Source: Vicinamibacteria bacterium (GTDB taxonomy: Bacteria > Acidobacteriota > Vicinamibacteria > Marinacidobacterales > Marinacidobacteraceae). From it: a stretch of 64,000 nucleotides of DNA. The notes below the pieces were generated by a model. It worked only from the letters and a program-made list of their open reading frames with translations, was not told the DNA's origin and did not search any database. The stretch lies in the NCBI GenBank assembly GCA_963668695.2, contig CAXXLQ010000004.1, positions 2,464,001 to 2,528,000 of the forward strand. Direction: 5' to 3'. The stretch's first letter is position 1; the number at the start of each line of letters is the position of its first letter. A program made the position numbers and the translations under genes. Shown here piece after piece: positions 1-51,503 of this stretch.

Positions 1-736
1 GCGGCTCGTACTCCACGTCGACATACGGTGTGATTTCCTCAAACACCTTGAATTCGAACTCGACGGCCAGCTCTCGCGTCAAGGGCCGGAAGCTATGGAA
101 GGTCACCGGGATCGCCACCGTCTCGCCCTCCCGAATGATGCTGGACTGGCGGAAGCGTTCCGAGACGGTGAGCGCCATTTCCAGATGCTCGGGGGTCAGC
201 GGCGGAACCTCGCTCACGTCGTCATAGATTCCGCACCGCACGTTCGTGCACGCCAGCACCGGCCCCTCCCCGGCCCCCTCGGGACAGCGCTGCACCACGA
301 TCGCTTCGTGCGACCGGATCCCCGGAAGAGGAAAGCCCCGAGAAGGAAGGCCCCAGTGGGGCGCCAGCCGCAGGCTGAACTCGTGGCGAACCGTCTCCCC
401 CGCTTCGCTCACCCGCCAGTTCCACAGCGTTTGCGACTGGAACATGTCCAGCAGCATGGTGTCCGCGGGCCCCGCCTCCACCACGAAATCCACCTCGTAC
501 TGTTCGGTGCAAAAAACCGGGCTCGACTCGTCGATCCGCCGCGGCGCCCCGACCCGGATCGTCCCACTCGCGCACTGCGACACCACCGGATAGGGCTCCT
601 CCGGCGGCTCCGGCGGTTCGGTCGGCACCGCCGGAGGCCCGGGAGCGGGGACCGGGGGCGCCGGGGTCTCGCAGCCGGGGCTCGCCGCCAGCGCGAGGCC
701 CAACCACAGCACCCACCCCGGAGCCGGCGTCCCCAT
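1..736 (-). CDS. Lipoprotein with Pro-rich linker and Cys-rich domain, paralog of the C-terminal domain of 48657..51503; 3' end lies outside the window
   Basis: Manual translation from ATG 736: MGTPAPGWVLWLGLALAASPGC-ETP (signal peptide plus Cys), then ADTMLLD...IVVQRCPEG...LACTNVRCGIYDDVSEVP; frame open to position 1. Absent from the ORF track because it has no stop in the window. Confidence 0.75.
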   Translation of the reverse strand, partial: MGTPAPGWVLWLGLALAASPGCETPAPPVPAPGPPAVPTEPPEPPEEPYPVVSQCASGTIRVGAPRRIDESSPVFCTEQYEVDFVVEAGPADTMLLDMFQSQTLWNWRVSEAGETVRHEFSLRLAPHWGLPSRGFPLPGIRSHEAIVVQRCPEGAGEGPVLACTNVRCGIYDDVSEVPPLTPEHLEMALTVSERFRQSSIIREGETVAIPVTFHSFRPLTRELAVEFEFKVFEEITPYVDVEYEP

Positions 737-747
737 GCCGCGAAGCC

Positions 748-1133
748 TCACGGAAGGGGCTCGCTCCGCCGCACCGCCAGCGGCACCGGACCGCTCTCCT
801 CGCCCGCCCGGACCCGGACCGCCCCCACCCGCAACGCCTGCCGCAGGTCCAGCACGGCCCCGACACTCGGGTAGAAGAAGTGGTTGTTCGCTACCCCCGT
901 GGGGGAGCGGATGATCAACTGGTAGTCGCCCGGAACCAGACCCCGGGATCCCACGAGCGAACATCGCGCCTATCGGGATCGGATTCGATGAAGTGGTACA
1001 CCTCCGCACGTCCTGCCGGGAACACGCTCAGGGCGCAAACCAGGCCGGCGAACAGGGCTGCCGCCGGGACGGCACGGCGCCCCGAGCGGCGGGCACGCCC
1101 GGAAGGAACGCGGATCGCAGGGAGTCGGTTCAT
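748..1133 (-). pseudogene. Internally deleted paralog of the metalloprotease at 47645..48652
   Basis: N-terminus (signal peptide, YHF...WDPGVW) is joined out of frame near 935 to a C-terminus GLVPGDYQLIIR...LRQALRVGAVRVRAGEESGPVPLAVRR that matches GLPVGRYLLLVR...IRDALRASLVSVTAGADAGPVTIRVR; no HExxH motif. Confidence 0.65.
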
Positions 1134-1404
1134 GGCGCTGCCGGCAAGAGGCGGCTGAGCAAGCCGGACGTGTCGGTTGGCGAGGAATGGTACCGAACCC
1201 CTGTTGGGGTTGGGTTGCCACAAGTGGGGCGCCGGCGCTCGCGGAGCTCCGGAAGCGGCCGCTGCCTGGAGGAAAACCACCATGCGGCCGCCCCCTGTCC
1301 GGAGTCTCATCGTTCCTGAAGCGCGTACCGCTTGGGGATTGGCCCCGGCCGGGACGAGCCCGCGCGGAGGCCCGCCGGGAACCGGCGACCCGCGCTAGCG
1401 CCGG

Positions 1405-2583
1405 ATGGGTGAAGCGAAGCGGCCCGTCTCTCCCGCGCGAACGCCGCATAGAATCAAAGCCGTTCTGTTCCCTCGCCGAGCCTCGGTTCCTCTGCTGCTC
1501 CTCGCTCTCGGGATCGTTCTTGCTCACCGGGCAAACGCGGGGGTGCCAGAACGCCAACCGGGTGTTCCTTTTTCCCTCGATCCCGGACTCGTTGCGGTTC
1601 CCGGCATCGAGGTCGGCCAGCATGAGCTCGATGGCCTGCCCACCGGCTGCACCGTAGTCCTCGCCCGCGAGGGCGCGGTCGCGGGGGTGGACGTCCGGGG
1701 CTCCGCTCCCGGGACCCGTGAGACCGACCTGCTCGATCCCGAGAACACCGTGGAGCGGGTCCACGCGGTGGTGCTTTCCGGGGGGAGCGCCTTCGGGCTC
1801 GCGGCGGCCGACGGGACAATGCGCTTTCTCGAAGAAGCCGGCATCGGATACCCGGTGGGCCCCTTCCGGATACCCATCGTCCCCGCCGCCATCCTGTTCG
1901 ATCTGGGGGTCCAGGGACCGGGCGCCGTCCGTCCGGGGCCCGACTGCGGCTACCGGGCGGCCGCCGCCGCGGGTGCGCATCCGGTCCGCCGCGGCAACGC
2001 CGGCGCGGGCGCCGGGGCGACCGTCGGGAAGAGCCGGGGCATGGCTCGGGCGATGAAGGGTGGGATCGGCTCGGCCTCGCTGAGCTTTCCGGACGGCCTG
2101 ATCGTGGCGGCGCTCATCGCCGTGAACGCGGTGGGCGACGTGGTGGACCCCGCGGACGGAACGGTGGTGGCGGGCGTGCGCGACGACGACGGGGGCCTCG
2201 CGGATTCGCGCCGTTTACTGCTCGAATCCCTTCCCGGCCGGGGTTTTGGGGCGGACGCGGAAGGCGCCGGTCCGCTTGGCGGAGCGAACACCACCATCGG
2301 GGTGGTGGCCGTCAACGCTCCGCTCACCAAGGCGGAAGCGAACAAGGTGGCCGAGATGGCGCACGACGGTCTGGCGCGGGCCATTTATCCGGTGCACACC
2401 CCCTCCGACGGGGACACGCTGTTCGCGCTCTCCACCGGAAGCGGGCCGGAAGCCCGCGTCGGGAGGATTGGCGCCCTCGCCGCCGAGGCGGTAGCGCGCG
2501 CCGTGCTGGACGCGGTCCGCTCGGCGGAGTCGCTGCCCGGGCTTCCCTCGATCCACGACCTCCCGGCACCGCCGGAGCGGTAA
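1405..2583 (+). CDS. P1/S58 (DmpA-like) peptidase
   Basis: Motifs TGCTVV, VDVRGSAPGTRETDLL, LSGGSAFGL, NTTIGVV, DGDTLF; start codon uncertain. Confidence 0.9.
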   Translation: MGEAKRPVSPARTPHRIKAVLFPRRASVPLLLLALGIVLAHRANAGVPERQPGVPFSLDPGLVAVPGIEVGQHELDGLPTGCTVVLAREGAVAGVDVRGSAPGTRETDLLDPENTVERVHAVVLSGGSAFGLAAADGTMRFLEEAGIGYPVGPFRIPIVPAAILFDLGVQGPGAVRPGPDCGYRAAAAAGAHPVRRGNAGAGAGATVGKSRGMARAMKGGIGSASLSFPDGLIVAALIAVNAVGDVVDPADGTVVAGVRDDDGGLADSRRLLLESLPGRGFGADAEGAGPLGGANTTIGVVAVNAPLTKAEANKVAEMAHDGLARAIYPVHTPSDGDTLFALSTGSGPEARVGRIGALAAEAVARAVLDAVRSAESLPGLPSIHDLPAPPER

Positions 2584-3053
2584 CAGTCTGTGGCGAAACC
2601 CAGGCGGCCCAGTTCTCCCGGTGGGGGCTCGGCCGGCGATCCATCCCGGCCAAACAGCCTGTGATGAAACCCGCGCGGCGTTCGGCAGGCGATCCATCCC
2701 GGCTGACCGCGTCGCTTCGCGCCGCTCATCGTTGCGTTTCGGTCGGAATACACCCGGGCCAGTTCTCCCGGTGGGGGCTCCTCCCTCACGCGCCTCGTCA
2801 GCCGGGCCCCCACCGGGAGAACTGGCCCCACCGGGAGAACTGGGCCTCGCCGGCCTCGGCGCTCACGCGGGTTCCACCACCGGCTGTTCACCGCGTCGCT
2901 TCGCGCCGCTCATCGTTGCGCTTCGGTCGAAATACACTCGGGCCAGTTCTCCCGGTGGGGGCTCCTCCCTCGCGCGCCTTGTCAGCCGGGTGCCTCCCCC
3001 CCACCGGGAGAACTGGCGCTCTCGGCGCTCACGCCACCTTGTCCACAGGCTGT
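2583..3053. mobile_element. Nested MITE composite (inner copy ~2654..2887 inside an outer copy) with six 20-mer motifs
   Basis: TIRs ACAGTCTGTGG...CCACAGGCTGT with TA on both sides; the left TA plus the first element base form the peptidase stop codon. Confidence 0.8.
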
Positions 3054-3062
3054 TAAGCGGGC

Positions 3063-4423
3063 GTGTCCCCGCATCTCCTCGTCCTCGCGGCCTATTCGGT
3101 CCTGCTGATCGCGGTCGGCTGGTACGTCTCCCGGAGGGGGCGTTCCGCCGAAAGCTTCTTCGTGGCCGGACGCCGCCTGCCGGCGCGGCTGATCTTCGCG
3201 ACCGTGCTCGCCGCGAACATCGGGGCCGGCTCGACCATCGGCGCGGCCGCGCTCGGCTACGAGTACGGGCTCGCCGCCTTCTGGTGGGTGGGGGCCGCGG
3301 GCATCGGCACCCTGCTCCTCGCCGTCTGGCTGGGCCCCCGGATGTGGCGGGTCGCCACCGAAGCCCGGCTCCGCACGGTGGGCGACTTCCTCGAGCTGCG
3401 CTACGGCGTTGCGGTCCGGATCGCACTCACCGGTCTCCTGCTCGTCGCCACCCTCTTCGTGCTTGCGGCGCAGTTGCTCGCCGCCGGATTGCTCATCGAA
3501 GGCGCCGCGGGGATACCGCTGCCGTTCGCCATCCTCGCCGCGGCGGTGGTGATGACCGCCTACTTCGCGGTGGGGGGGCTCCAGAGTGCGGCATCGGTGA
3601 ACTTCGTGCAGCTCGGGGTCTTGCTCCTGGGACTCGGCCTCGCCGTGCCTTACGCCCTGTCCGCCGCCGGGGGCGGGGCCGGAATCCGCGGCGCCTCGGA
3701 GAGGGCGCGTTCGACATCTTCGGGAATGCGTCCCTCGCCTTCGGCTACACCGCGCTATTGATCCCGGCCTTCCTGGTGTCCCCCGGCATCCTGCAGAAGC
3801 TCTTCGGGGCCCGCAGTGAGAGCGCCGTGCGCCGCGGCCTCACCGCCGCCGGCGCCGTGTTGCTCGTTTTCGCCGCGGTCCCGCCGCTCCTCGGCGCCGC
3901 GGCAGCGGTCCTCCATCCCGAACTGGCAAGCGCCGACGCCGCCCTTCCGGCGCTCCTCGTCGAGTCGCTTCCCCTCTGGCTCGGAACCCTCGGGGTGGCG
4001 GCGCTTTTCTCGGCCGAGGTGTCGAGCGCCGACGCGGTGCTCTTCATGCTTTCCACCTCGCTCTCCCGGGATGTCTTCCACCGCTTCCTGCGGCCGGGAG
4101 CCGACGACCGCACCGTCCTGCGGGTGGCGCGCGCGGCCGCGGTGGTTTCCGGCCTTGTCGGTGTCGTGATCGCGATCCTCGCGCAGAGCGTGATCGCTTC
4201 CCTCACGGTCTTCTACTCGATCCTGGGCGTCTCTCTCTTCGTGCCGGTGGTGGTCGGCCTCCACCGCTTCCGGCCCCCCGCCCGCGCCATCCTGAGCGGC
4301 GCGGCGGTCGGGGTTTTGGTGTTCTGGTTGGCTCCGGAGAACGGGATTCTCCCGCCGCCGCTACTCGGCATCGCGGCCTCCGGGGTGGTGGTGTTTCTCC
4401 ACCTGCGGACCGCAAGGCCCTGA
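3063..4423 (+). CDS. Sodium:solute symporter (SSS family), frameshift near 3695
   Basis: FFVAGRRL, ANIGAGST and many TM segments in two overlapping frames; adding one C to a C-run restores the frame. Confidence 0.85.
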
Positions 4424-4503
4424 TTCGCCGGGAAGGCGCGGCGCGGTAGCGCCTGCCGGCCGGACGCCCCGGAGGCGGCGGGTGGGGGCACAATCCGCGG
4501 GCC

Positions 4504-5649
4504 ATGGCTCCCGACCGCGCCGGCCCGGACCTCGCGTCCGCCGATGTCGTCATCGTGGGAGCCGGTCTCGCCGGGCTGCAGTGCGCCCGTCTGGTTGGCG
4601 AGGCGGGGCTCGACGTCGTCCTGCTGGATCGGAAGGAAGACCTGCGCGACCGCGTGCATACCACCGGGATCTTCGTGCGGAAGTCCCTCGAAGACTTCGA
4701 TCTGCCGCCGTCCTGCCTCGGTCCGCCGATCCGCCGGGTCGCGCTCTATTCCCCGGCGCGGCGCGCGCTCCGGCTGTCGAGCCGGCGCGACGAGTTCCGG
4801 GTGGGGCGGATGGGGACGCTCTACCGCGAACTTCTCGATCGCTGTCTTGCGGCGGGCGTTCGGTTTCTCCCCGGCACGCGCTATCGCGGGTCCCGTCCGG
4901 CCGGAACAGGCCTCGTGGTCGAGCTGGAGCGCGACGGAAAGGGGCTGAATATCGAGACGCGCCTTCTCGTAGGGGCCGACGGCGCGAACTCCCAGGTGGC
5001 TCGTGACCTCGGGCTCGATTCCAACTCGGACTGGCTGGTGGGCCTGGAGTGGGTGTACACCGGGGTGCCCCTCTCGGGACCGGCGACCCTGCACTGTTTT
5101 CTGGATCCCCGGATCGCGCCGGGCTACCTCGCCTGGGTTGTCCAGGATGGCGAGGAGACGCACGTGGGGGTCGGCGGCTATCCCGGCCGCTTCCGGCCCC
5201 AGACCGCGCTCGCGGAATTCGCGGGCAGCCTGGAGAGCCTCTTCGCCCTCGACCGGGGCCGGCTCGTGGAGCAGCGCGGGGGCCGGATCCCGGTCAACGG
5301 GGTGTTGCGCCGGATCGGCGGCGACCGCGGCCTGCTCGTCGGCGACGCGGCGGGGGCGGTTTCACCGCTGACCGCTGGCGGCTTCGACGCCTGCCTCCGG
5401 CTTTCCCGGCGTGCCGCAGGCGTCATCGTGCGCCGTTTCGAGACCGGCGACCCGAGTGTGCTGGCGACCTATTCGGGGGCGAGGCTCCGGTCTCGATTTC
5501 TCTCCCGGCGCTGGATGCGCCTCCTGCTCGCGGGAATCCGGAGTCCGGCGGTGATGGAGGCGGTGTGCCTGATGTTGCGGTGCCCCCCGTTCCGCAACCT
5601 CGCGTGGCAGGTCTTCTTTCGCCGGCGCTCCTTCCCCGACCTGGAGTGA
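4504..5649 (+). CDS. FAD-dependent oxidoreductase, geranylgeranyl reductase-like
   Basis: GAGLAG Rossmann motif, LVGADG, LVGDAAG..SPLTAGG. Confidence 0.8.
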   Translation: MAPDRAGPDLASADVVIVGAGLAGLQCARLVGEAGLDVVLLDRKEDLRDRVHTTGIFVRKSLEDFDLPPSCLGPPIRRVALYSPARRALRLSSRRDEFRVGRMGTLYRELLDRCLAAGVRFLPGTRYRGSRPAGTGLVVELERDGKGLNIETRLLVGADGANSQVARDLGLDSNSDWLVGLEWVYTGVPLSGPATLHCFLDPRIAPGYLAWVVQDGEETHVGVGGYPGRFRPQTALAEFAGSLESLFALDRGRLVEQRGGRIPVNGVLRRIGGDRGLLVGDAAGAVSPLTAGGFDACLRLSRRAAGVIVRRFETGDPSVLATYSGARLRSRFLSRRWMRLLLAGIRSPAVMEAVCLMLRCPPFRNLAWQVFFRRRSFPDLE

Positions 5650-5657
5650 TGCCCGCC

Positions 5658-5760
5658 AGCGGGCCCCCACCGGGAGAACTGGCCACCGGTCTCCGGCCGG
5701 CATCGCGCGGGAGCGCGAAACCAGCGCCGATGATGCTGCGCCATGCCAACGTGAGGGCCC
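5658..5760. repeat. REP-like repeat family 2 with a 20-mer at 5663..5682
   Basis: CCGGCATCGCGCGGGAGCGCGAAACCAGC.CCGATGA..CTGCGCCATGCCAAC is shared with the copies at 56453..56690. Confidence 0.7.
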
Positions 5761-5907
5761 ACCACCTTTCAGTCCCGGAGGGCGTGTCCGCTCGCTGCTC
5801 CCGCTCCCTCGGCCTCATCGGCACCGCCTGCCGGAGGCTGGCGCGACGCGTGACGCTTACCGTCCTGATGGCGTCGAGTCCGACGTCCCACGTCGGGGCG
5901 GAACCCG

Positions 5908-6174
5908 TCAGAAGATCTCTTCCGGCTTCACCGACGGATCGTCGATCGACCCGAACTCCTCCTCCAGCGGTACGAGTCCGGACAGGACCTCACGTAGCGT
6001 CGGGGATCGTTCGGCGAGCCCAGGAACCGGAAGAATCTCCTCGCGACAGGTGGCGACTTCGTCCGTGGCCAGCTCCGATTCCGAAGGAGTCCGGCCCGGC
6101 TGATTCCGGCTGTTGCGAAATGGGCGAGTCTGACTGGTTGGCCGCGGCCACTTCGGGGCGTTCGCTCTCGGCAT
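5908..6174 (-). pseudogene. Possible VapB-like antitoxin remnant, no toxin downstream
   Basis: C-terminus LREVLSGLVPLEEEFGSIDDP resembles VapB tails; the N-terminus does not. Confidence 0.35.
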
Positions 6175-6250
6175 CTGCGAAGCCTCTGTCGAAGTCGGCC
6201 CGAGGTCAAATCACGGGGCACGAATTGTCCCGGGCGATAATGCGCGCGCT

Positions 6251-7054
6251 GTGAATCCCGCCGCCTCTCCCTTCTCCCTCGACGGGATGGACGTAGTCGT
6301 GATCGGCGGCGCCTCCGGGATCGGCGAAGCGAGCGCCCGGCTGGCGGCCCGGTCGGGGGCGAGGGTAGTGATCGCCGATCGGGATGAAGTCGCGGCCGAG
6401 GCGGTAGCTGCCGCAATCAGCACCGAAGGCGGGACCGCTGTTTCCCGGGGTGTGGACATTCGCTCCGGCGAATCGGTCGAGAGCCTCTTCCGGGGCCTCG
6501 AAACCGAAGGTTTCCGGCCCCGCGGACTCGTCTCCACTCCGGGCGTGAACGTCCGAAAGAGGCTCGCCGACACCAGTGAAGAAGAGTTCGAAAGGGTCGT
6601 CTCGCTGAACTTGAAGGGGACGTTCCACGCGCTCCGCCACGGGGCAGCGAGCCTGGCGCGGTCCGGCGGCGGGAGCATCGTGCTGCTCTCGTCGATCCGC
6701 TCGCAGGTGGTGGAGCCGGGGCAGGGGGTCTATGCGGCCACCAAGGCGGGGATTGTGCAACTCGCCCGCACCGCGGCGGCCGAATGGGCTGCCTCCGGAT
6801 TGCGCGTGAACGCCCTCGCCCCCGGCGTCGTCGAGACGCCGCTCACCGCCCCCATCGAGAGCCGCCCCGACTGGAAACAGGCGTACACCGACAAGACGCT
6901 GCTGGGACGCTGGGCGACCGCGGACGAAATGGCCGCGCCGACAGTGTTCCTGCTGTCCCCGGCGGCGAGCTACGTCACCGGGTCGGTGCTCTTCGCGGAT
7001 GGCGGCTGGACCGCGGTGGACGGCCGGTTCGACCCGCTGCCCAACGCTCCATGA
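6251..7054 (+). CDS. SDR family oxidoreductase
   Basis: GGASGIG, YAATK, RVNALAPG, YVTGSVLFADGG. Confidence 0.92.
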   Translation: MNPAASPFSLDGMDVVVIGGASGIGEASARLAARSGARVVIADRDEVAAEAVAAAISTEGGTAVSRGVDIRSGESVESLFRGLETEGFRPRGLVSTPGVNVRKRLADTSEEEFERVVSLNLKGTFHALRHGAASLARSGGGSIVLLSSIRSQVVEPGQGVYAATKAGIVQLARTAAAEWAASGLRVNALAPGVVETPLTAPIESRPDWKQAYTDKTLLGRWATADEMAAPTVFLLSPAASYVTGSVLFADGGWTAVDGRFDPLPNAP

Positions 7055-7890
7055 GTCTGCGCGTGGGGTTGAGTCCGCCGCGGGCTTCACCAGCTATTCG
7101 AACGGCGTACGTCGGAGTGGACGTATCCGTGTCCAGGAGAAAGCGAATTCCCATTTCCGTATGCGTTCGTGATGAGGCCGGCCGGCTGTCACCTCTGGCT
7201 CTCAAGGGCTCCAAGAAGGTGAAAGCGCCGCCAGGGATCGGAAACGCTGCGACTCTGTGCGACAACCGGGTAGCTGAGTTCGCACAAGAGATGGCAGATT
7301 TCCTCAAGGCGCTCGTTGGACAGGAGAAGCTTGAGATCCGCCGCATCGCGATTGACGCGCCCCGGGACTATCGATCAGCAGACTCCGGGCGAAGAGCGTC
7401 GGAGCAGGCGCTATATAAGGAGGGTATTCCCTATTTCTCAACGCCTTCCGAGGCCGAGTTCGCGGAGATTCGCAAGAAAGCCGAAAAACACTTGAGAAAC
7501 AAAGGTAGCCAGAGCAGGCTTCCTCATGCCAACCAACTCTGGATGCTCGCGGGGTTCCAAATCTGGCGAGAATTGATCGCTACATTCGCCGAAAGCGAGT
7601 GTCTCGAAACGCATCCACATGCGATTTCTGTCCGGCTCAAGGCCGAAAGCAGCAAGAAATCCTCGTCGGCTGGTTTTACGGACAGATTGAATGCTGTGTA
7701 TTCGTTGACGGGATGGGACTCCCCCGATGTTCTCAAGCGCCGAATCGACAAGCAGGGTTATGGGTCAAGCCACGACAAACTGGATGCGTTCCTGTGTGCC
7801 TGGCTAGCGAGTCTTGATGAGGGAAAGCGGGAGGCTCTTGGGAAACCAGCGGACGATGCCATCTGGGTGCCAGTTGGCTCCAGGAGGTAG
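7051..7890 (+). CDS. DUF429-like (RNase H-fold, predicted nuclease) protein
   Basis: YVGVDV, AIDAP, ETHPHA, DKLDAFLCAWLA; ATGA overlap with the SDR stop; visibly lower GC. Confidence 0.7.
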   Translation: MSLRVGLSPPRASPAIRTAYVGVDVSVSRRKRIPISVCVRDEAGRLSPLALKGSKKVKAPPGIGNAATLCDNRVAEFAQEMADFLKALVGQEKLEIRRIAIDAPRDYRSADSGRRASEQALYKEGIPYFSTPSEAEFAEIRKKAEKHLRNKGSQSRLPHANQLWMLAGFQIWRELIATFAESECLETHPHAISVRLKAESSKKSSSAGFTDRLNAVYSLTGWDSPDVLKRRIDKQGYGSSHDKLDAFLCAWLASLDEGKREALGKPADDAIWVPVGSRR

Positions 7891-8321
7891 AACGGGTGTC
7901 ACATCGCGACCGCGGATCTGCTGGCCTTGCTTCGCGGGCTCCTCGGCGCCGCTGTGGCCATTCTCGGTATCCGCGTCACACACCTCCACACCCGTCGGGG
8001 GTGTGAATCTCGCCCGCCTCTGGCGGGCGATCTCGGTTTATGACCGGCGTTCCCTGGCCCTTCCGCGCTACAGGCGGGTCAGCATTACGCGCTTTCGCTG
8101 GGCTGCGCCCAGCGGTGCCGACCAGAGGTCTATACCTTTCCGGGCATCACATTTTCATGGGGCAGACACCCTGCGAACGAATGGCGCCGGACGGGGTGCG
8201 TTGGGGCGCGGCAGGTAGCCGGGAGGCGGTGTCAAGAGGAGGAAGGCGGCGAAGGTCCGGCGTTCCAAGCCGTCCCCGCGCTTTTTCTCGGTCAACGGTG
8301 CGGTCTGGCGGCCCTGCGGGC

Positions 8322-8375
8322 TGCGGTGCCGGTCTGAATGCCCCCACCGGGAGAACCGGCCGGCGATCCCTGGCC
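8322..8375. repeat. Partial REP-like family 2 copy with a 20-mer variant at 8340..8359
   Basis: Reverse complement reads GGGATCGCCGGC[CGGTTCTCCCGGTGGGGGC]ATTCAGACCGGCAC. Confidence 0.65.
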
Positions 8376-8388
8376 TCCGCGCGTCCTC

Positions 8389-12152: not shown

Positions 12153-12183
12153 CGCGCCGTTTCGCGGCGGCCGGGACCCAGGC

Positions 12184-15589: not shown

Positions 15590-15596
15590 CGCGCCC

Positions 15597-34717: not shown

Positions 34718-36861
<2,144 letters not shown>

Positions 36862-40508: not shown

Positions 40509-40693
40509 TTCAAGGGGCTCCGGCATTCAGGCCGAAGCGCCAGGCGGGCCCTCCCGAATGCCAGCTTGGAGGGGCAGGAATGGTAGCAAAGCCCCGGACG
40601 GTCTGGCGGCGGTGTCCGGCGGATTCGCCGAACGCCGAGTCGCTTGCCGGGGTTCATATCCGCCGCCAGGTTTCTCCGGCAGGGTCCGCCGGG

Positions 40694-41044: not shown

Positions 41045-41099
41045 GAACCGAAAGCGTATCATTCGGGCAGTGCCGACCGTCGAAGATTCCGTCGCGCAG

Positions 41100-42413: not shown

Positions 42414-42611
42414 TAGCCTGTGGATAGAGTGGCGTGAGCGCCGAGAGCGGTGAGGCGCCCGGCTGACAAGGCGCGCGAGGGAGGAATACCGGGTGTATTC
42501 GGACCGAGGCGCAACGATGAGCGACGCGAAGCGGCGCGGTTCAGCCGGGATGGATCGCCGCTCGAGCCCCCACCGGGAGAACTGGGCCGCGCCACTCTGT
42601 CCACCGGCTGC
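42413..42611. mobile_element. MITE with one 20-mer (42566..42585)
   Basis: TA|GTAGCCTGTGG...CCACCGGCTGC|TA; left end forms the ispH TAG. Confidence 0.82.
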
Positions 42612-42666
42612 TAGCGCGGCTTCGGCGAGCGAACGCCGCACCGGATCGTCGTCCGCCTGATACCGA

Positions 42667-44757
42667 ATGCCTTCCGGCTCTTCGCGTTACGCCGGACCGG
42701 CCGAGCGCGCGGCTCCCTACGCTCGTCCCGGCCTGCCGCCGGGGAAGTCCGATCGACCCTTCCGGGTGGTGAGCCCTTTCGAGCCGCGCGGAGACCAGCA
42801 AGAAGCCATTGAGCAGCTCGCCGCGGGATTGGAACGGGGCGATCCGAACCAGGTGCTGCTCGGGGTAACGGGCTCGGGCAAGACCTATTCCGTCGCTCGG
42901 GCCATCGAGGCGGTAAACCGCCCGGCGCTGGTCATCGCGCACAACAAAACGCTCGCCGCCCAGCTCTATCAGGAGTTCCGGAGCTTTTTCCCGAACAACG
43001 CCGTCGAGTACTTCGTGAGCTACTACGACTACTACCAGCCCGAGGCCTACGTCCCGGCGAGCGATACGTACATCGAGAAGGAGGCCACGATCAACGACGA
43101 GATCGATCGCCTCCGGCTGTCGGCCACCCGTTCACTCTTCGAGCGCCGGGACGTGCTCATCGTCGCGAGCGTCTCCTGCATCTACGGCCTCGGCTCTCCC
43201 GAGGCCTACTACGGGATGCTCGTCGTGTTCGAGGAGGGAGCCGAGTTCCCGTCCCGGCAGGCGCTTTTGCGCAAGCTCGTCGAGATGCAGTACGAGCGAA
43301 ACGACGCCTCCCTCGAGCGGGGCCGTTTTCGGGTGCGCGGAGACACCGTGGAGATCGTCCCCGGCTACGAAGACCTCGGCCTGCGGGTGCGGCTTTTCGG
43401 CGACGAGGTGGAGCGCCTGGCCCGCTTTGACCCCCTGACCGGTCGCGAGCTCGCGCGCGAGCGCCGGGTCACGCTCTTCCCGCGGAGGCACTACGTGGCC
43501 CGGGAGGAGGACCTCGCCCGGGCGCTGGTCACGATCCGGGAAGAACTCGACGAGCACCATCCGAAGCTTCTCCAGGAGGGGAAGCTGCTCGAAGCGCAGC
43601 GTCTGATGCAGCGCACGCTCTTCGATCTGGACATGCTCGCCGAGTCGGGCCATTGCCACGGCATCGAGAACTACTCGCGTCACTTCACGGGGCGCGCTCC
43701 CGGCGAGCCGCCTCCGACCCTCATGGACTACCTGCCGTCGGACACCATCGTCGTCGCGGACGAAAGCCACCAGACGTATCCGCAGATCCGCGGCATGTTC
43801 GCCGGTGACCAGGCCAGGAAACGCACCCTCGTGGAGCACGGTTTTCGGCTCCCCTCGGCGCTCGACAACCGGCCGCTTTCGTTTGAGGAGTGGGAGGAGC
43901 GGGTCGGACAGGCGATCTCGGTTTCGGCGACCCCGGGGCCGTATGAACTCGAGGCCGTGGGCGGGGTCGTGGTCGAGCAGGTCATCCGCCCCACCGGTTT
44001 GCTCGATCCCGAGGTCGAGGTGCGGCCCGCGGGAGATCAGGTGGACGACCTGCTCGGAGAGATCCGGGAGACGGTGGCCCGCGGTGAGCGCGTGCTCGTC
44101 ACCACCCTGACCAAGCGAATGGCGGAGGACCTGGCCGAGTATTACCACGAGCTCGGGGTGAACTGCCGCTACCTGCACTCGGACATCGACACCCTCGAAA
44201 GGGTGCAGCTCCTCCGCTCCCTCCGCCTCGGCGAGTTCGACGTGCTGATCGGGATCAACCTCTTGCGTGAGGGGCTCGATTTGCCCGAGGTCTCCCTGGT
44301 GGCCATCCTCGATGCCGACCGGGAGGGGTTTCTCCGCTCGGAGGGAGCGCTGATCCAGACCATGGGCCGGGCGGCCCGGCACGCCAGCGGTCGGGCGATC
44401 CTCTACGCCGACCATGAGACCGGCTCCATGAAACGGGCGCTCGGCGAGACCCGGCGCCGCCGCGTGCTCCAGCAGGAGTTCAACGAGGAGCACGGCATCG
44501 TGCCCCGCACGGTGGTCAAGGATGTGGCCGCGGCGTTCGCTCCCGCATCGGCAGGGAAGGCGGCCGTGGAGGAGGCTGACTGGGACCGGGCGATGGGGCT
44601 CTTCGAGGTGCCGCCCGAGGATCCGGAGGCGCTCGAGCGCGAGATCGCCCGGCTCCGCAAGGAAATGAAAAAGGCGGCGCGGGATCTGGAGTTCGAGCGG
44701 GCCGCCCGGCTCCGCGATCACCTGCGCGGAATCCAGCACACCGCGCTGTTGCGCTAG
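42667..44757 (+). CDS. uvrB: Excinuclease ABC subunit B
   Basis: [41 protein letters not shown] tail FERAARLRD. Confidence 0.97.
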
Positions 44758-44879
44758 GGGGCACCACGTGTCGTTTATCCGCGACAAAGTTCGTGTCGTT
44801 TGACAGCGTTTCGCCGTCCCCGGATAGGCTCGGTTAATCGGCGAACATAGCGGTGGGAGTGCCGTGGGAGAATGACGGG

Positions 44880-46241
44880 ATGAGCAGCAGTCCGACCGAA
44901 TCCGTGTTGCAGGAGGAAACTCCGCCGGCCTGTCGTCCGCGGCTGAGCACCGAAGCCATCCGCGAGGCCCACCGCCGCTACGTTATGCCGGCGGTGCAGA
45001 CCTTCTACGACGAGCCCATGCCGATCGTCCGGGGCAAGGGGAAGCACGTCTGGGACTCGGACGGCAACCGCTATCTCGATTTCTTCGGCGGGATCCTCAC
45101 CGTCGGCCTCGGCCACTGCCATCCCGAGGTGAACCGGGCGATCCACGAGCAGGTGGACACCCTCCAGCACGTCACCACCATGTTCCCGAACCAGCCGATG
45201 GTGGAACTCGCCGAGCGCCTGGCCCGCCTGTCTCCCGGGGACTGCCGGAAGAGCTTCTTCACCAACTCCGGCACCGAGGCCAACGAGATGGCCCTGCTGC
45301 TCGCCGAAATGCATACCGGGCGGTCCGAAATAATCGCCCTCCGCCACGGCTACAGCGGCCGCAGCCGGTTGACCATGGGCGCCACCGGACAGGCGCCCTG
45401 GCGCCTCGGGGCCAGCACCGCCGCGGGTGTCCGCCATGTCGCGAACGCCTACTGCTACCGCTGTCCCTTCGGTCTCGAATACCCCTCCTGCGACCTCCGC
45501 TGCGCCCGCGACATCGAGGACGTGATCCAGACCACCACCTCGGGCCGGATCGCCGGGTTTATCGCCGAGCCAATTCAGGGAGTGGGCGGGTTCATCACCC
45601 CGCCGCCCGGATACTTCGAGATTGCCGTGGAGATCGTACGGCGCTACGGCGGGGTCTTCATCTGCGATGAGGTGCAGACGGGGTGGGGCCGCACGGGCGG
45701 AACCCTGAACGGAATCGAACACTGGGACGTGGAGCCGGACATCGTCACCTACGCCAAGGGGCTCGGGAACGGGGTGCCGGTGGGAGCCACGGTCGCCACC
45801 GACGAAGTCGCGGATGCAATACAAGGCAACACGCTCTCGACCTTTGGCGGCAATCCGGTGAGCATGGCCGCCGCCGGAGCGGTTCTGGAGGTGGTCGAAC
45901 GCGAAAACCTCGCAGAGAATGCGGAACGCGTGGGCGCCCATCTCCGGGCAGGACTCGAAGACCTCGCCGAGGCCCATCCGGCGATTGGCGACGTGCGCGG
46001 GAAGGGGCTCATGCAGGCGATCGAGTTCGTCGAGGATCGGGACACGAAGGCGCCTGACGCCCGTTTCACCGCCTGCCTGCTCGAAAAGGCGCGCGACGAG
46101 GGGCTTCTGATTGGAAAGGCCGGGCTCTACGGCAACTGCGTCCGCATCTCGCCGCCGCTCAACATCGGGGTCTCCGATGTGAACGACGCGCTGGTACTCC
46201 TCGAACGGGCGCTGACCGCCACCGAGGCCGCGCTCCGTTGA
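44880..46241 (+). CDS. Class III PLP aminotransferase (AGXT2-like)
   Basis: FTNSGTEANE, EPIQGVGG, DEVQTGWGRTG, AKGLGNG, TFGGNP. Confidence 0.9.
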   Translation: MSSSPTESVLQEETPPACRPRLSTEAIREAHRRYVMPAVQTFYDEPMPIVRGKGKHVWDSDGNRYLDFFGGILTVGLGHCHPEVNRAIHEQVDTLQHVTTMFPNQPMVELAERLARLSPGDCRKSFFTNSGTEANEMALLLAEMHTGRSEIIALRHGYSGRSRLTMGATGQAPWRLGASTAAGVRHVANAYCYRCPFGLEYPSCDLRCARDIEDVIQTTTSGRIAGFIAEPIQGVGGFITPPPGYFEIAVEIVRRYGGVFICDEVQTGWGRTGGTLNGIEHWDVEPDIVTYAKGLGNGVPVGATVATDEVADAIQGNTLSTFGGNPVSMAAAGAVLEVVERENLAENAERVGAHLRAGLEDLAEAHPAIGDVRGKGLMQAIEFVEDRDTKAPDARFTACLLEKARDEGLLIGKAGLYGNCVRISPPLNIGVSDVNDALVLLERALTATEAALR

Positions 46242-47562
46242 CTTCCGGGTCCGCCGCGGCGCCGCCGGCAGCAGGAGGCCCGCCGCCGGCAGCAGGAGCC
46301 GCCGGCAGCAGGAGGCCCGCCCGGCAGCAGGAGGCCCGCCGGCCAGGAGGCCAGGAGGCCCGCCGCCGGCAGCAGGAGGCCCGCCGCCGGCAGCAGGAGG
46401 CCAGCCGGCGGTAGGAGGCCAGCCGCTCGCGGGAATCCGCATTCTGGACCTGTCCAGAATCCTGGCCGGCCCCTACGCCACGATGATGCTCGCCGACCTC
46501 GGCGCCGAGGTGATCAAGATCGAGCCGCCCGCCGGGGATGACACCCGGACCTGGGGCCCGCCCTTTGCTGGCGGGGAGGCCGCCTACTTCGTGGCCGTCA
46601 ACCGGGGAAAAAAGAGCGTCACGCTCAACCTCAAGACCGAAGAAGGCTCCGAGGCCCTCTGGCGGCTGGTCGCGAGCAGCGACGTGCTGGTCGAGAACTT
46701 TCGGCCGGGGACGATGGCCCGGCTCGGGTTTTCTCCCGAGCGGGTTCAGAACCGTCACCCTCGGCTGGTCTGGTGCTCGGTCTCCGCCTACGGCCAGTAC
46801 GGGCCGCTCTCGTCCAAGCCGGGTTACGACGCGATCATGCAGGGCGAGGCCGGCTGGATGGGCCTTACCGGTCCGCCCGAGGGGCCGCCCACCAAGGTCG
46901 GGGCCTCCCTGGCCGACATCTGCGCCGGGATGATGGCGAGTTCCGGCATCCTGGCTGCCCTGTTCGCGCGGGAGCGGGACGGGCGGGGCCGCCGGGTGGA
47001 TGTGGCGCTCTTCGATTCGGTGGTGGCCACCCTCTGCTACCAGGCGCAGGGGTATCTGCTCACCGGTGAGGAGCCGGTCCGAAGCGGCAACAACCATCCC
47101 TCGCTGACGCCCTACGAAAGCTTCGAAGCGTCGGACGGGCACGTGATCGTGGGCGTCGGCAACGACGCGATCTGGAAGCGCTTCTGTGCGGTGGCGTGTC
47201 CCCACCTGGACCGTTCCGGGTTCGAAAAGAACCCCGACCGGGTGCGCCGGCGCCCCGAACTCCGCGCCCTGCTCGAGCCGGTCTTCCGTGCCCGGGGGGT
47301 CGCCGAGTGGGAGCGGATGCTGGACGCAGCCGGCGTTCCGGTGGGCCGGGTCCGAAGCGTGGCGGAGATCGTGGCGAGCCCGCAGCTTCAGGCGCGTGGG
47401 ATGGTGGTGGAACGCGAGCACCCCGCGGTCGGCACCCTCCGGATGGTCGGGAACCCGGTCCAGTTCGACGGGCAGAACCACACCGCCGCCCTCCCGCCGC
47501 CACTCCAGGGCCAGCACACCGAGGAGGTCCTCCGCGCCGTCCGGCCTCCACCGGACTACTGA
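46238..47562 (+). CDS. CaiB/BaiF CoA transferase; N-terminal repeat tract, start uncertain
   Basis: LAGIRILDLSRILAGP..LADLGAEVIKIE, NRGKKS, ENFRPG, GYD. Confidence 0.88.
46255..46425. repeat. ~21-bp tandem repeat (CCGCCGCCGGCAGCAGGAGGC) with irregular units
   Basis: About 8 units seen directly. Confidence 0.85.
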
Positions 47563-47644
47563 ACCGCCGCCTCCGAGCCGCACCCGGCACGGTAGCGGCC
47601 GTCATACTCAAGTGTCGTACAGGTGTAATTCACCGGTACGGATC

Positions 47645-48652
47645 ATGAATTCCTGCCGCGGAGTGCCCGGACGTCGATTCCTCCCGGGGAGCCTTCTGGT
47701 GTTCCTCATGACCTTCGGGCTGGGGATGTCGGAGGGATACCGGTTCCTGTTCGCCGATTTCGAGGGGACGCCGGCGCCCACCTACTGGGATCCCGCAAAG
47801 TGGGGTTCGGAGGAAACCCTTTCGTTTGTGCTCGTTGAGGCTCCGGAGTGGCTGGAGATGTTTTCCGGCATGGCTGAGGTCGAGAACTTCATCGAAGACG
47901 ACCTGATGGATGAGTGGTCGAACCTCACGACAGCAGATATTCGGTGGGAAATCGGAAGCGTCTCGACGAGCGTCGTGGACGACGCCTACAACATCCGGGT
48001 GAGTGACCGAACGACGTTCGCTACCTCCCTGATAACCAGAAAGAGGTCCGGCATCGTCGATTGCCAGATCTCCCTGGCGCCGCGCCTCCTGCGGACGCAT
48101 CGCCTGATCCTGGGGGACTCTCTCATTCACGAATTGGGCCACTGCCTCGGGCTCGGTCACGCGGCGAACTACTGGCCCGACGCCCACTTCATCGGTAGGA
48201 ATCTGGAACCGCCCGCGGCCTGGGCAGACGATCCCGTCATGTCCTACGGACGGACCCTGGGGGAGGTCACTTCCGATGATTCCATCGGCGCCTCCCTGCT
48301 GCGGCCGGCGTCCGGCTGGAAGGCGCGAACCGGAAGCATCTCGGGCACCGTGCTGAACGAGGATGGCGACGGCGCCGCGGTCGTGCACGTGCTGGCCACC
48401 CGCCTCGACGGCAGCGGCAACCTGGGAGCGAGCGCCGGCCGCTTCACGAACACCTCGGGCGAGTTCGTCCTCGAAGGACTGCCGGTCGGGCGCTATCTCC
48501 TGCTGGTCCGGCCCATCGTGGACGCGGACCCGCACGGCGACCTGATCCGCCTCGCCGAAACCGGAATCCGCGATGCGCTTCGGGCGTCGCTCGTTTCCGT
48601 GACCGCCGGCGCGGATGCCGGGCCGGTGACGATCCGGGTGCGGGACCGCTAG
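47645..48652 (+). CDS. Secreted matrixin-like zinc metalloprotease with C-terminal beta-sandwich
   Basis: Signal peptide, HELGHCLGLGH, Met-turn PVMSYG, GSISGTV...GEFVLEGLPVGRY. Confidence 0.85.
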   Translation: MNSCRGVPGRRFLPGSLLVFLMTFGLGMSEGYRFLFADFEGTPAPTYWDPAKWGSEETLSFVLVEAPEWLEMFSGMAEVENFIEDDLMDEWSNLTTADIRWEIGSVSTSVVDDAYNIRVSDRTTFATSLITRKRSGIVDCQISLAPRLLRTHRLILGDSLIHELGHCLGLGHAANYWPDAHFIGRNLEPPAAWADDPVMSYGRTLGEVTSDDSIGASLLRPASGWKARTGSISGTVLNEDGDGAAVVHVLATRLDGSGNLGASAGRFTNTSGEFVLEGLPVGRYLLLVRPIVDADPHGDLIRLAETGIRDALRASLVSVTAGADAGPVTIRVRDR

Positions 48653-48656
48653 GGTC

Positions 48657-51503
48657 ATGATCGAAGCACGGTGTCGGTGGCTTTCACGGATCTCCGGCGC
48701 GCTTTTCATCCTCGGCCTCGGCGGCGCTCCGGGGTGCGACACCCCCACGACGCCGGCTCCTGAGAGTCCGGCGATCCCCGGCTCCCCGCCGTCGGTTCCA
48801 CCGTCCGGGCCGGCTCCACCTGCCGCGCAGCCCCCGCCCGCCCAGCCCGCGCCGCCCCCGGGGCCGGAACAGCCCCCTCCACCGCCCGAGCGTCCCGTCC
48901 CGCCGTCCTCTGGTGGCGGTGGTGGCGGTGGCGGCGGTGGTGGTGGTGGTGGTGGTGGTGGTGGTGGTGGTGGTGGTGGTGGTGGTGGTGGTGGTGGTGG
49001 TGGTGGCGGTCTGACGACCATGAGCGGACCGCGGCCGACCGGAATCATCGCCGCCAATCCCGACGCGATTTTCCGGGGGGAATGCTCCAACCTGAACTGG
49101 TTCACCGAGGACGCCACCAGCCAGTCCATCAACCAGGGAATCGGGTCGGTCCCGGCTCGCGGACACCGCCTGATCTGCCCCACGAGGACCACGACCTACA
49201 CGCTGAGTGCGTCCGGCCCCGGGGGATCCCTGTCCCTCGCTCCCTCGGTGACGATCACGGTGACGGCACCCCCGCCGACCGGTGACCTGGGGGTAATCAC
49301 CACACCCATCCAGCGCGGGGAATGTACGGATCTCACCTGGTCCACCACCGGAACGGCCAGCCGGAGGATCCAGCCTGACGTCGGGAGCGTCGGGCCGCAG
49401 GGCCGGGAGGCAGTCTGTCCCGGGGTCACGACCACCTACACGCTGACCGCCTCGGGCCCGGGGGGATCCCTGGATCCCGAGCCCGCCGTCACCGTCGTCG
49501 TCATCCAACCCACCCCGACGGGGCAGCTCTCCGCGACCCGCCCGGCGCTGATCTCAGGGGAGTGCACGGAGCTGCTCTGGGTTACCACGGGGACGACCAG
49601 CCAGACCATTGCGCCGGGCATCGGGAGCGTGCCGGTCTCCGGATCCCGCAACGGGGTCTGTCCGACGGCTACCACGACGTACACCCTGACCGCGACCGGT
49701 CCGGGAGGCACGGTGACGCCCGCGCCGGAGGTGACCGTTACCGTGGTTCCGGCGCCGCCGACCGCGAGTCTCAACGCGAATCCGCCGAGCGTCACCTCGG
49801 GAAACTGTTCGACCCTGAACTGGAGCACGACGGACGCTACCGATGTGTCCCTGAACCAGGGGATCGGCAGCGTGTCCACCAGCGGATCCCGGCAAGTCTG
49901 TCCGACAACTTCCACGGCGTACACCCTGACCGTCTCCGGGCCGGGCGGATCGCTCAGCCCGAGCCCCGAGGTCACGGTTACGGTGGCGGCTTCGTCGTCC
50001 GCCCCGACGGGAACGATTGGAGTTGACCCGGTGTTTCTGGACCGCGGCGAATGCTCAGCGCTCAGTTGGAGCACGACGGACGCGACGAGCCAGTCCATCG
50101 ATCAGGGGATCGGCAGCGTCGCCGCCAGCGGTTCGCAGCGGATCTGCCCGACCGAGACGACGACCTACACCCTGACCGCCTCCGGTTCCGGAGGTTCCCT
50201 GAGCCCCGAACCCACGGCCACCGTGACCGTGGAACAGCCCAAACCGGACGGTGACCTGTTCGCCGATCCCGAGCGGATCAGCCGGGGGCAGTGTTCCACC
50301 TTGAGCTGGATTACCCGGGACACGCCCATCCGGTCCATCGATCAGGGGATCGGCAGCGTCGCGGCCAGCGGATCCCGTTCGGTCTGCCCGACGGAGACGA
50401 CAACCTACCGACTCACTGGTTCGGGCCCCGGGGGGAATCTGAACACGATGGTGACGGTCCAGGTCGTCCAGCCGGTGCCGACGGGAACTCTGACCGCCAG
50501 CCCGGAAGAGATCGAGACGGGGAAATGCTCCACGCTGACCTGGCGCACCGCCGAAACCACCACCCGTTCCATCGATCAGGGAGTCGGGGACGTGGCGGCC
50601 TCGGGTTCCGAACAAGTCTGTCCGACCGAGACGACGACCTACACCCTGACCGCCTCCGGACCGGGAGGATCCCTGACGCCGTCGCCCTTCGCCACCATCA
50701 TGGTCAAAGAGCCGCCCGCGTCCGAGGTCCGCTGCGAGATGGTGAGCGTGTCCACGGAGACCCCCATCCGGGCTGGCGAGGGCTATGGCATCTGCCGCGA
50801 CGACTTCTTCGTGGACATCACCATCGAAACGAAGGACGCCGACACCACGGTCCTGGACCTCGGGGAGCCCTACCGCATCTTCGACTGGCAGGTTGAGACG
50901 ATCACCGACGGCCTCCGGCACTCGGTGCGCCTTCACTGGAACCCCCGGGACGAAGAGGGTCTGCTGCCCTCTTCCGGCAGAGCAAGGCCCCTAATCGTCC
51001 AGGCGTGTCCCGAGGGGGACGTGGGAACGTTCGTCGCTTGTGACGACCTCGGATGCACCACGTATAACGACGAAAGCGACATCCCCGACGTGCGGACGCC
51101 GCTCAGCCTGCGGCCTTCCACCAACATCGTGCTCGAGAGTCCCTGGATGGAATCCGAGGTCCAGGACGTCGAGGAGGGGACGCAGCTCGACATTCCGATT
51201 TCCTACGAGATCGACGGAAGCTTCACCGGGAGCATTTTCGTGGAGGCGTCCCTCACCATCGTAGGCAGCTCCGCGAACGCCAGCCGGCGGTTGGTTTCCT
51301 TCAGGAGACTGGTGACCGCGGATGTGACCCCGAACGCCTCCGGAAACCTCGATTTCTGGGTGGTGCCGAATCTGACTTCGGAAGACGAGGGGACGCATAC
51401 GGTGAAGCTCAACTTCCAGGTCGGGTTGTCCACTTCCAGCGCTTCCGACTGCATCGTCCCGCCGAATTCGGTGCAATTCCGGGTCATCGAGGCCCAGCCA
51501 TAG
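48657..51503 (+). CDS. Surface lipoprotein: Pro-rich, 33-Gly tract, 7 two-Cys Ig-like repeats, Cys-rich C-terminal domain
   Basis: GAPGC-DTP; repeats PTG...GECxxLxW...IDQGIGSV...CPT.TTTYTLTA.GPGG x7. Confidence 0.85.
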   Translation: MIEARCRWLSRISGALFILGLGGAPGCDTPTTPAPESPAIPGSPPSVPPSGPAPPAAQPPPAQPAPPPGPEQPPPPPERPVPPSSGGGGGGGGGGGGGGGGGGGGGGGGGGGGGGGGGLTTMSGPRPTGIIAANPDAIFRGECSNLNWFTEDATSQSINQGIGSVPARGHRLICPTRTTTYTLSASGPGGSLSLAPSVTITVTAPPPTGDLGVITTPIQRGECTDLTWSTTGTASRRIQPDVGSVGPQGREAVCPGVTTTYTLTASGPGGSLDPEPAVTVVVIQPTPTGQLSATRPALISGECTELLWVTTGTTSQTIAPGIGSVPVSGSRNGVCPTATTTYTLTATGPGGTVTPAPEVTVTVVPAPPTASLNANPPSVTSGNCSTLNWSTTDATDVSLNQGIGSVSTSGSRQVCPTTSTAYTLTVSGPGGSLSPSPEVTVTVAASSSAPTGTIGVDPVFLDRGECSALSWSTTDATSQSIDQGIGSVAASGSQRICPTETTTYTLTASGSGGSLSPEPTATVTVEQPKPDGDLFADPERISRGQCSTLSWITRDTPIRSIDQGIGSVAASGSRSVCPTETTTYRLTGSGPGGNLNTMVTVQVVQPVPTGTLTASPEEIETGKCSTLTWRTAETTTRSIDQGVGDVAASGSEQVCPTETTTYTLTASGPGGSLTPSPFATIMVKEPPASEVRCEMVSVSTETPIRAGEGYGICRDDFFVDITIETKDADTTVLDLGEPYRIFDWQVETITDGLRHSVRLHWNPRDEEGLLPSSGRARPLIVQACPEGDVGTFVACDDLGCTTYNDESDIPDVRTPLSLRPSTNIVLESPWMESEVQDVEEGTQLDIPISYEIDGSFTGSIFVEASLTIVGSSANASRRLVSFRRLVTADVTPNASGNLDFWVVPNLTSEDEGTHTVKLNFQVGLSTSSASDCIVPPNSVQFRVIEAQP
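48912..49010 (+). repeat. (GGT)n-dominated tract encoding 33 Gly
   Basis: 99 nt counted from the coordinates. Confidence 0.9.

Follow-up and report, generated by a model that had tools for sequence, protein, structure and literature searches.

Why does a bacterium encode a matrixin-like protease directly in front of a Cys-rich lipoprotein, and what could such a partner do for the enzyme? The question was raised by a stretch of 64,000 nucleotides of a Vicinamibacteria bacterium (hereafter the window; assembly GCA_963668695.2, contig CAXXLQ010000004.1, designated here as G000:C4:2464001-2528000 of a 4.1-Mb genome). An earlier note on this DNA described the gene pair as duplicated, with one copy at 47645-51503 on the plus strand and another running from 1133 beyond the first position on the minus strand, and proposed that the lipoprotein anchors, inhibits or targets its cognate protease at variable distance from the cell. 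Both the autonomous two-gene cassette, a lineage-specific variation on the theme of a protease and its partner, and the Cys-rich domain (CRD) of the lipoprotein are undescribed. We tentatively favour the reading that the CRD is the cognate docking module of its protease, with the stalk setting the distance from the membrane.

The pair at 47645-51503 was found as described, and both open reading frames (ORFs) and their translations match the claim. It consists of the following parts.

47645 to 48652, plus strand: protease A, an ORF of 335 amino acids (aa) with a signal peptide, a metzincin catalytic domain and a CarboxypepD_reg-like beta-sandwich tail.
48657 to 51503, plus strand: lipoprotein A, an ORF of 948 aa with the lipobox ...GAPGC27.
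48738 to 48911, plus strand: Pro-rich linker of lipoprotein A (residues 28-85, from the translation).
48912 to 49010, plus strand: tract of exactly 33 Gly in lipoprotein A (residues 86-118).
49047 to 50717, plus strand: stalk of lipoprotein A, seven immunoglobulin (Ig)-like repeats of about 76-80 aa each (residues 131-687).
50727 to 51089, plus strand: CRD of lipoprotein A, about 120 aa with five Cys (residues 691-811).
51090 to 51500, plus strand: C-terminal Calx-beta-like beta-sandwich of lipoprotein A with the motif EG.T..IP (from the alignment and a model of the paralog P0001).

The translation of protease A contains the zinc motif HELGHCLGLGH and the invariant Met in DPVMSYG. A conserved block starting with GYRF follows directly after the signal peptide, without a propeptide, as seen in the translation and in an alignment of 35 rows; GYRF is the first conserved block of this alignment, which was built from profile-matched regions. 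The tail is CarboxypepD_reg-like (Pfam PF13620, E 1.4e-7), with 32.2 bits against a cut-off of 32.3. The start codon of lipoprotein A lies 4 nt past the stop of protease A. Counting confirmed the 33-Gly tract and the seven Ig-like repeats ahead of the shared domain, which had been reported for one copy only, and the other copy is without repeats. At the DNA level the tract is a nearly pure 99-nt run of GGT and GGC, so its length is likely unstable; read placement passed over 48908-49015 as a repeat. Each Ig-like repeat matched a repeat profile built here with E 1e-31 to 1e-37. In a profile search the repeat was confined to four ORFs genome-wide, all four of them CRD lipoproteins.

At the window start, the claimed second pair comprises a lipoprotein and the remains of a protease, not an intact one.

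1 to 736, minus strand: lipoprotein B, first 245 of 325 residues in the window, start at 736.
769 to 945, minus strand: 3' piece of the protease remnant, in a different frame, last 59 residues of the CarboxypepD_reg-like tail.
915 to 1133, minus strand: 5' piece of the protease remnant, signal peptide followed by about 25 residues of the mature protein (AEVYHF...WDPGVW) up to a stop.

The 3' piece corresponds to profile positions 249-305 of 305 (E 1.1e-12). This protease is a deletion remnant that has lost its catalytic domain, including HExxH. The whole lipoprotein B (325 aa, L001:11762-12736 (-)) continues beyond the window start; it possesses a ...ASPGCETP lipobox, a Pro-rich linker, no Ig repeats, a CRD at window positions 200-580 and then the C-terminal sandwich. 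Both lipoproteins, with ...GAPGC and ...ASPGCETP, have the lipobox Cys start and the Pro-rich linker attributed to them earlier. The five Cys of lipoproteins A and B align, and BLASTP gave 27% identity over 183 aa (E 3e-17), a significant alignment in agreement with the proposed shared five-Cys domain. The shared region held, as a single module it did not: it comprises the CRD and the Calx-beta-like sandwich, which may stand either way round, and in some proteins the CRD stands by itself.

Duplication and paralogy stood as well, but a pair is not the extent of the family. Searches of the 4.1-Mb genome revealed 16 protease loci and 13 CRD proteins, a paralogous family of 13 to 16 members whose gene order is kept in relatives. 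Ten CRD proteins were found by the genome searches, nine directly 3' of a protease locus and one after the remnant. After three further proteases comes a gene for a small protein (about 145-170 residues, signal and linker counted). Each of these three proteins begins with a signal sequence, to which two add a lipobox and a Pro linker. The domain of these small partners ends in W..LE....GC.....C....C and joins the CRD family in a profile-profile comparison (probability 87.9%, E 3.2e-6, positions 4-114 of 125). A CRD partner lies downstream on the same strand at 12 of the 16 protease loci. After the lipid anchor, the CRD proteins are organised in three ways.

Type I, six copies: 0, 2, 2, 7 or 11 Ig-like repeats, then the CRD, then the second sandwich.
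Type II, four copies: the second sandwich, then the CRD.
Type III, three copies: the CRD alone.

Type II was recognised from the type I profile, which matches these proteins as two pieces in swapped order. The variable stalk length foreseen by the earlier note is evident in the 0, 2, 7 or 11 repeats. In eight of the nine type I and type II cassettes, the distance from the protease stop codon to the next start codon is +4 to -4 nt. Two more cassettes lie just before the window start (L001:4775-8060 and L001:8633-11880); they form a tandem duplication of about 3.8 kb with 91-96% identity, each unit being a whole cassette. The duplication also carries a 150-nt copy of the 3' tail of lipoprotein B, and IS21-type istA/istB-like genes lie beside it (L001:2827-4838).

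The lipobox is the signal peptide end with its invariant Cys. The protease has a signal peptide without lipobox Cys, and in this genome pattern reading detected a lipobox-like Cys in all CRD partners but one minimal form. The partner signal peptides end in ...GAPGC, ...ASPGC, ...GLLGC, ...AGLSC, ...GWAGC, ...VWGC, ...AGGC, ...LFAC and ...GAAC. Two adjacent protease paralogs (L010:2897-3805 (-) and L010:4343-5302 (-)) have altered zinc motifs; one reads HQIGHCLGLGH, in which the catalytic Glu is replaced, and the other HEIGHCLPLLH, with Pro for the motif Gly. Both keep a minimal CRD partner. Judged by its motif, the HQIGHCLGLGH paralog is probably inactive. One protease locus is split over two frames, into ORFs about 190 nt apart, L007:1353-1904 (+) with profile positions 1-82 and L007:2091-2801 (+) with positions 106-305; a frameshift, an insertion or an assembly error is possible. 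The protease tree is only in broad agreement with partner type, several forks being unresolved; as linked genes duplicate jointly, the agreement was not taken as a sign of co-evolution.

The co-occurrence search suggested by the earlier note was extended to related genomes, and the linkage held. In addition to the 12 of 16 loci above, a protease homolog was located directly upstream, on the same strand, at 11 of 11 loci around the best CRD matches of relatives. A CRD ORF follows downstream, on the same strand, in 42 of 44 full-length protease homologs in public genome loci; the count covers homologs whose locus extends at least 1200 nt further downstream, and five with shorter downstream sequence were left out. 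Arrays of three or four tandem cassettes are common in relatives. With the CRD profile, matches appeared in 22 of 24 further genomes from the bacterium's own family and in none of 16 from two other families of the order. A fused protease-CRD protein, used as query (E 1e-20 or better), was recovered in 22 of 23 genomes of that bacterial family; across 18 other families of the class, 97 genomes gave no match. Among the genomes searched, both protein families are confined to a single family of marine Vicinamibacteria (Acidobacteriota).

A HMMER search of the CRD profile against 1.84 billion cluster representatives returned 181 matches at E 0.001, 69 at 1e-10 and 10 at 1e-30. For the short lipoprotein P0001, a word-indexed search for homologs yielded no more than six proteins, all unnamed, and the sources call both cassette proteins 'hypothetical protein' or do not name them at all. 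The public records with relatives are metagenome-assembled genomes (MAGs) titled Candidatus Marinacidobacterium, Vicinamibacteria or Acidobacteria; the name 'Marinacidobacterium' was not found in a literature search. Oligoflexia, Bdellovibrionota and others gave partial matches to the catalytic domain only, without CRD.

At least four genomes of relatives encode both partners as one protein. In P0070, P0094, P0133 and P0146 a single chain runs through protease, CarboxypepD_reg and CRD without an intervening lipobox, and the fusion P0133 is present on three contigs. At six places in the genomes G019, G003, G017 and G006 the fused query matches near end to end with no internal stop. Six-frame profile scans detected one open frame for both domains at L096 (G019), L097 (G003), L098 (G014) and L099 (G017); at L098 a slightly longer match contains one TGA. 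Two candidate fusions, P0109 and P0142, were rejected, as they look like run-on gene calls over two genes. The spacers vary too: other proteins have fn3 (P0030, P0138) or Big_2 (P0125, P0142) between anchor and CRD. Such interchangeable, unrelated spacers between anchor and CRD correspond to the layout of a stalked display protein.

The CRD is conserved in sequence and matches no known family. Residues C6, W57, H68, C97, P98, C108 and C113 (lipoprotein A domain numbering) are invariant in a 35-row alignment. No row of the type I alignment lacks the first, third, fourth or fifth Cys (C1, C3, C4, C5), and four Cys in the corresponding order are likewise present in all three type III forms. In four of the five rows without C2, the second Cys, a sixth Cys that lies in the second domain is missing too; because both are lost together, at most in two independent losses, the alignment suggests an interdomain disulfide between them. 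Searches of the lipoproteins against Pfam and NCBIfam gave nothing above noise, no Pfam family recurred among 42 CRD-containing members at E 0.1, and a PDB sequence search with the lipoprotein profile gave no match at E 10. The family had not been recognised by the earlier note, and these databases agree with it.

The CRD model, based on a 42-row alignment, is an all-beta sandwich with a mean predicted local distance difference test (pLDDT) value of 85.7 and a predicted template modelling (pTM) score of 0.79. Foldseek, also recommended earlier for this domain, connected it to no known family: there were no PDB matches at E 0.001, the best having E 0.028. The wide search of VIA returned Ig constant-type domains only (best Z 7.4, a range deemed common by the tool), and in the ESM Atlas the best score was 0.87, under the lead level of 0.9. 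A two-domain lipoprotein model matched only generic sandwiches in the PDB by Foldseek. For the second domain (paralog P0001, residues 189-308), VIA found 3gin_A (Z 9.2, root-mean-square deviation 3.2, 108 aligned residues) and other Calx-beta matches, 2lt9 (Z 9.1), 3ead_A (Z 9.0) and 3fq4_A (Z 8.5). Unrelated sandwiches reach Z 8.8, so that Calx-beta leads by a margin of less than 1 Z unit, in a model with an overall pLDDT of 68.5. The second domains of seven lipoproteins had no Pfam match at E 1, Calx-beta (PF03160) included; Calx-beta is the family whose fold they match best, by that margin and without a Pfam match. Nine stretches of P0068, a protein of 2164 aa with URGCP-like GTPase domains and ten fn3 domains, match positions 30-84 of the CRD profile; the protein was not accepted as a member, since this is probably fold-level likeness to fn3 and not kinship.

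The protease appears to lie near the matrixins, mostly outside their family model. H133, E134, G136, H137, G140 and H143 are invariant in 35 protease sequences. Protease A scores 14.3 bits against Pfam matrixin PF00413 (cut-off 24, E 0.038) and 13 bits against the NCBIfam serralysin model NF035945 (M10B, cut-off 500); a few relatives do pass PF00413, e.g. P0094 at 25.0 bits. With the 35-row family profile, catalytic domains of matrix metalloproteinases (MMPs) came first in the PDB, led by stromelysin-3 (1hv5_A; E 1e-6, 31.3 bits, about 115 residues) and then MMP-20 and MMP-8. Similar to matrixins (MEROPS M10A), the cassette proteases possess HExxHxxGxxH and an invariant downstream Met, and continue from the catalytic domain into a beta-rich accessory domain. 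The matrixin cysteine-switch motif is PRCGxPD. Unlike matrixins, the cassette protease is sub-threshold in the Pfam model, protease A has neither propeptide nor cysteine-switch region, an extra invariant Cys stands in the motif (HExxHC) and another at C111, and the tail is CarboxypepD_reg-like instead of hemopexin. Karilysin is a bacterial MMP-like enzyme.

The two recently duplicated cassettes were compared by the Nei-Gojobori method; the ratios come from small counts and are untested for significance. They differ mainly at non-synonymous sites, with the following ratios of non-synonymous to synonymous rates (dN/dS).

Protease catalytic domain: dN/dS 2.2 (non-synonymous to synonymous differences 39.5 : 6.5).
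CarboxypepD_reg tail: dN/dS 1.0.
CRD: dN/dS 0.9.
Second domain: dN/dS 1.2.
Ig repeat 1: dN/dS 0.2.
Ig repeat 2: dN/dS 3.2.

The duplicates are under relaxed or diversifying selection, either one.

No conserved neighbour genes were identified when the cassettes L001-L012 were compared, as the flanks vary by cassette. Enzymes for the breakdown of peptides or amino acids are nevertheless frequent in these flanks, which include window positions 1399-2580 and 44838-47559: S58 aminopeptidase, M20, amidase, amidohydrolase, creatininase, FAA hydrolase, class III aminotransferase and CoA-transferase III. Downstream of lipoprotein A, the spacer consists of two repeat elements, followed by a gene with a TonB C-terminal domain at 51941-52930. 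By blastn, the element at 51528-51755 (about 230 nt) has about 65-70 copies in the genome and the one at 51756-51940 (about 185 nt) about 640. Contigs from RNA libraries stack on these repeats with loose ends, and an Rfam scan of the spacer gave only sub-threshold noise from miRNA models.

How could the two proteins work together? In the docking reading, the first gene would yield a Sec-exported, soluble, MMP-related zinc endopeptidase without propeptide and the second a lipoprotein with a conserved, disulfide-bonded Ig-like domain, the CRD, that would bind its own protease. The lipid-anchored partner would thereby keep an otherwise free enzyme at the cell envelope, and the spacer, a Pro/Gly linker with 0-11 Ig-like repeats or elsewhere fn3 or Big_2 domains, would fix its distance from the membrane. 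The cassette would multiply by tandem duplication and its copies diverge fast, so that a range of cognate pairs arises. Indirect yet consistent evidence speaks for a physical partnership: the invariant gene order, tight coupling, fusions, the combination of a soluble enzyme with an anchored partner, and the spacers. Direct binding, anchoring as its consequence, the cellular location and the substrates are what we infer. That the probably inactive HQIGHCLGLGH paralog keeps a CRD partner would fit binding better than pure inhibition. The proposed membrane tethering resembles that of membrane-type MMPs, with a separate lipoprotein in place of a transmembrane helix or glycosylphosphatidylinositol anchor.

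Multimer prediction, another check proposed in the earlier note, lends the pair weak support. Mature protease A with the CRD and second domain of lipoprotein A scored 0.45 (runs 0.45, 0.38 and 0.55), and the best of three controls scored 0.00. The runs share at least 56% of contacts, with a partner pLDDT of at least 63. Of 157 solved complexes, 116 reached the pass mark, as did 2 of 215 mismatched pairs; passes at scores of 0.60 or less account for only 18 of the 157 solved complexes and for both passing mismatches. This calibration holds roughly, the alignments having been supplied by this analysis.

Several points weigh against docking. In the score band of the predicted complex, models would be more often wrong than right unless the complex is likely a priori, and because no interface was returned, anchoring and inhibition are not separable by this prediction. 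A CRD already fused to the protease has no need of affinity for it and may bind a substrate or surface instead. Its fold gives no functional clue because it is a generic Ig-like sandwich. No CRD partner was detected at four of the 16 protease loci: none was found after the proteases at C4:2641167, 2143342 and 2246976, and the ORF after the protease at C4:1828685 was not counted, with a profile E of 0.12 only in a six-sequence search. In Escherichia coli, the residue directly after the lipobox Cys decides on retention in the inner membrane, which may not apply to Acidobacteria. A crude regular expression found Asp or Glu at this position in 16 of 27 full-length type I homologs, which by analogy would leave surface exposure in doubt. 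Transcription of the cassette genes is hinted at by short contigs from four metatranscriptome runs of one study, 158-476 nt long with 0-3 differing letters, which cover parts of both genes; no RNA-library contig bridges the 48652/48657 junction, and carry-over of DNA is possible. Runs labelled 'sponge metagenome' contained hardly any of the short sequence words and give no evidence of habitat.

Rather than docking the enzyme, the CRD and the Calx-beta-like domain could form a head that binds the target or a host or matrix component, while the protease cuts the captured material. The fused chains resemble an enzyme with its binding module, and the layout of a stalk with a terminal head and exchangeable stalk modules, the Calx-beta-like fold of the C-terminal domain, and flanks rich in peptide and amino-acid catabolism (S58, M20, amidase, amidohydrolase, FAA hydrolase) all point this way, as does the fast divergence of recent duplicates in nearly all domains, expected for changing targets. 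Cohesin-dockerin scaffoldins and the surface glycan-binding lipoproteins of Bacteroidota likewise combine anchored beta-sandwich spacers, a terminal binding module and adjacent enzyme genes. The cassette lipoprotein shares this organisation, being anchored, with spacers and a terminal module beside an enzyme gene, and the Bacteroidota lipoproteins beside their glycosidases are the closest parallel to a substrate-binding head. Cohesins are among the weak fold matches, within the generic range (Foldseek E 1e-4, TM 0.2-0.4; VIA Z 7.5). Unlike scaffoldins, the cassette shows no sequence relation to them, its enzyme is a protease, and a dockerin-like motif was not seen, no dedicated dockerin search having been made. 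A head that binds substrate would, however, need neither one-to-one coupling at near-zero spacing nor a CRD partner kept by a probably inactive paralog; Pfam gave no match to a ligand-binding family, and the weak pass of the predicted complex, against controls scoring zero, speaks against it as well. We regard such a head as rather unlikely. A latency factor or inhibitor, with the CRD keeping the propeptide-less enzyme inactive in trans or in cis until release, is compatible with docking, an inhibitor being a binder too, and appears rather unlikely. Bacterial metzincins encoded beside a small exported protein that binds them one to one, AprA/AprI and PrtA/Inh, are described in PMC4070987, according to which serralysin producers co-express high-affinity periplasmic inhibitors encoded beside the protease. 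The cassette is similar to these pairs in having a metzincin gene beside an exported partner gene, and the GYRF block directly after the signal peptide of protease A with no cysteine-switch region, the tight coupling of both genes, the minimal forms with a CRD but without Calx-beta-like domain or stalk repeats, and the weak predicted binding would all suit an inhibitor. Unlike in serralysin-inhibitor pairs, there is no sequence similarity for the protease (13 bits against 500) or for the CRD (no Pfam match), and the partner is a lipoprotein that in many cases carries a long stalk and a second domain, with a CRD modelled as an Ig-like sandwich. According to PMC4070987, AprI has a free N-terminus that enters the active site; the mature N-terminus here would be the lipobox Cys, a linker and up to 11 repeats away from the CRD, and an AprI-like mechanism would be impossible for the CRD lipoproteins because this Cys is lipidated and far from the CRD. 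For an inhibitor, up to 11 stalk repeats and a second sandwich are superfluous, the HQxxH paralog keeps its partner, and Pfam gave no sequence match to inhibitor families.

Two further explanations make the lipoprotein a target or a shield. As a substrate of the upstream protease, its Pro/Gly linker could be cut to shed the head, in line with the long exposed Pro- and Gly-rich linkers and with the joint conservation of both genes. This is very improbable: fused and linker-poor minimal forms do not fit, nothing points to a cleavage site, and keeping a separate protease for each of sixteen substrates would be wasteful. Gene order, tight coupling and the many fast-diverging paralogous pairs would also agree with a toxin-immunity pair, in which the protease is secreted against bacteria or a host and the lipoprotein shields the producer. 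A toxin fused to its own immunity protein is unexpected, however, long stalks are atypical of immunity proteins, and no secretion-system or polymorphic-toxin domain was detected in the proteins or their flanks, which leaves this the least probable of the explanations. Docking of the protease by the CRD is the one that we continue to prefer, with the reservations given above.

With its pairing, its fusions and its three domain orders, the cassette is a clean case of a lineage-specific enzyme-partner module. The CRD is rare, unnamed and confidently modelled, and merits its own family. Surveys by annotation will miss the protease family because it lies mostly below the matrixin model. A larger, cellulosome-like display, in which a dozen matrix-type proteases on stalks of set length would cut sponge collagen, spongin or host surface proteins, is improbable on present evidence. 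A survey of about 1200 sponge MAGs reports that it identified no collagenase genes (PMC8163846). Such a survey would miss the cassette proteases because the family fails the matrixin model. If the display system were real, it would represent a collagen-degrading capacity absent from that annotation survey. If the lineage is sponge-living, the expanded, fast-diverging MMP-like surface enzymes would bear on how symbionts handle the host matrix.

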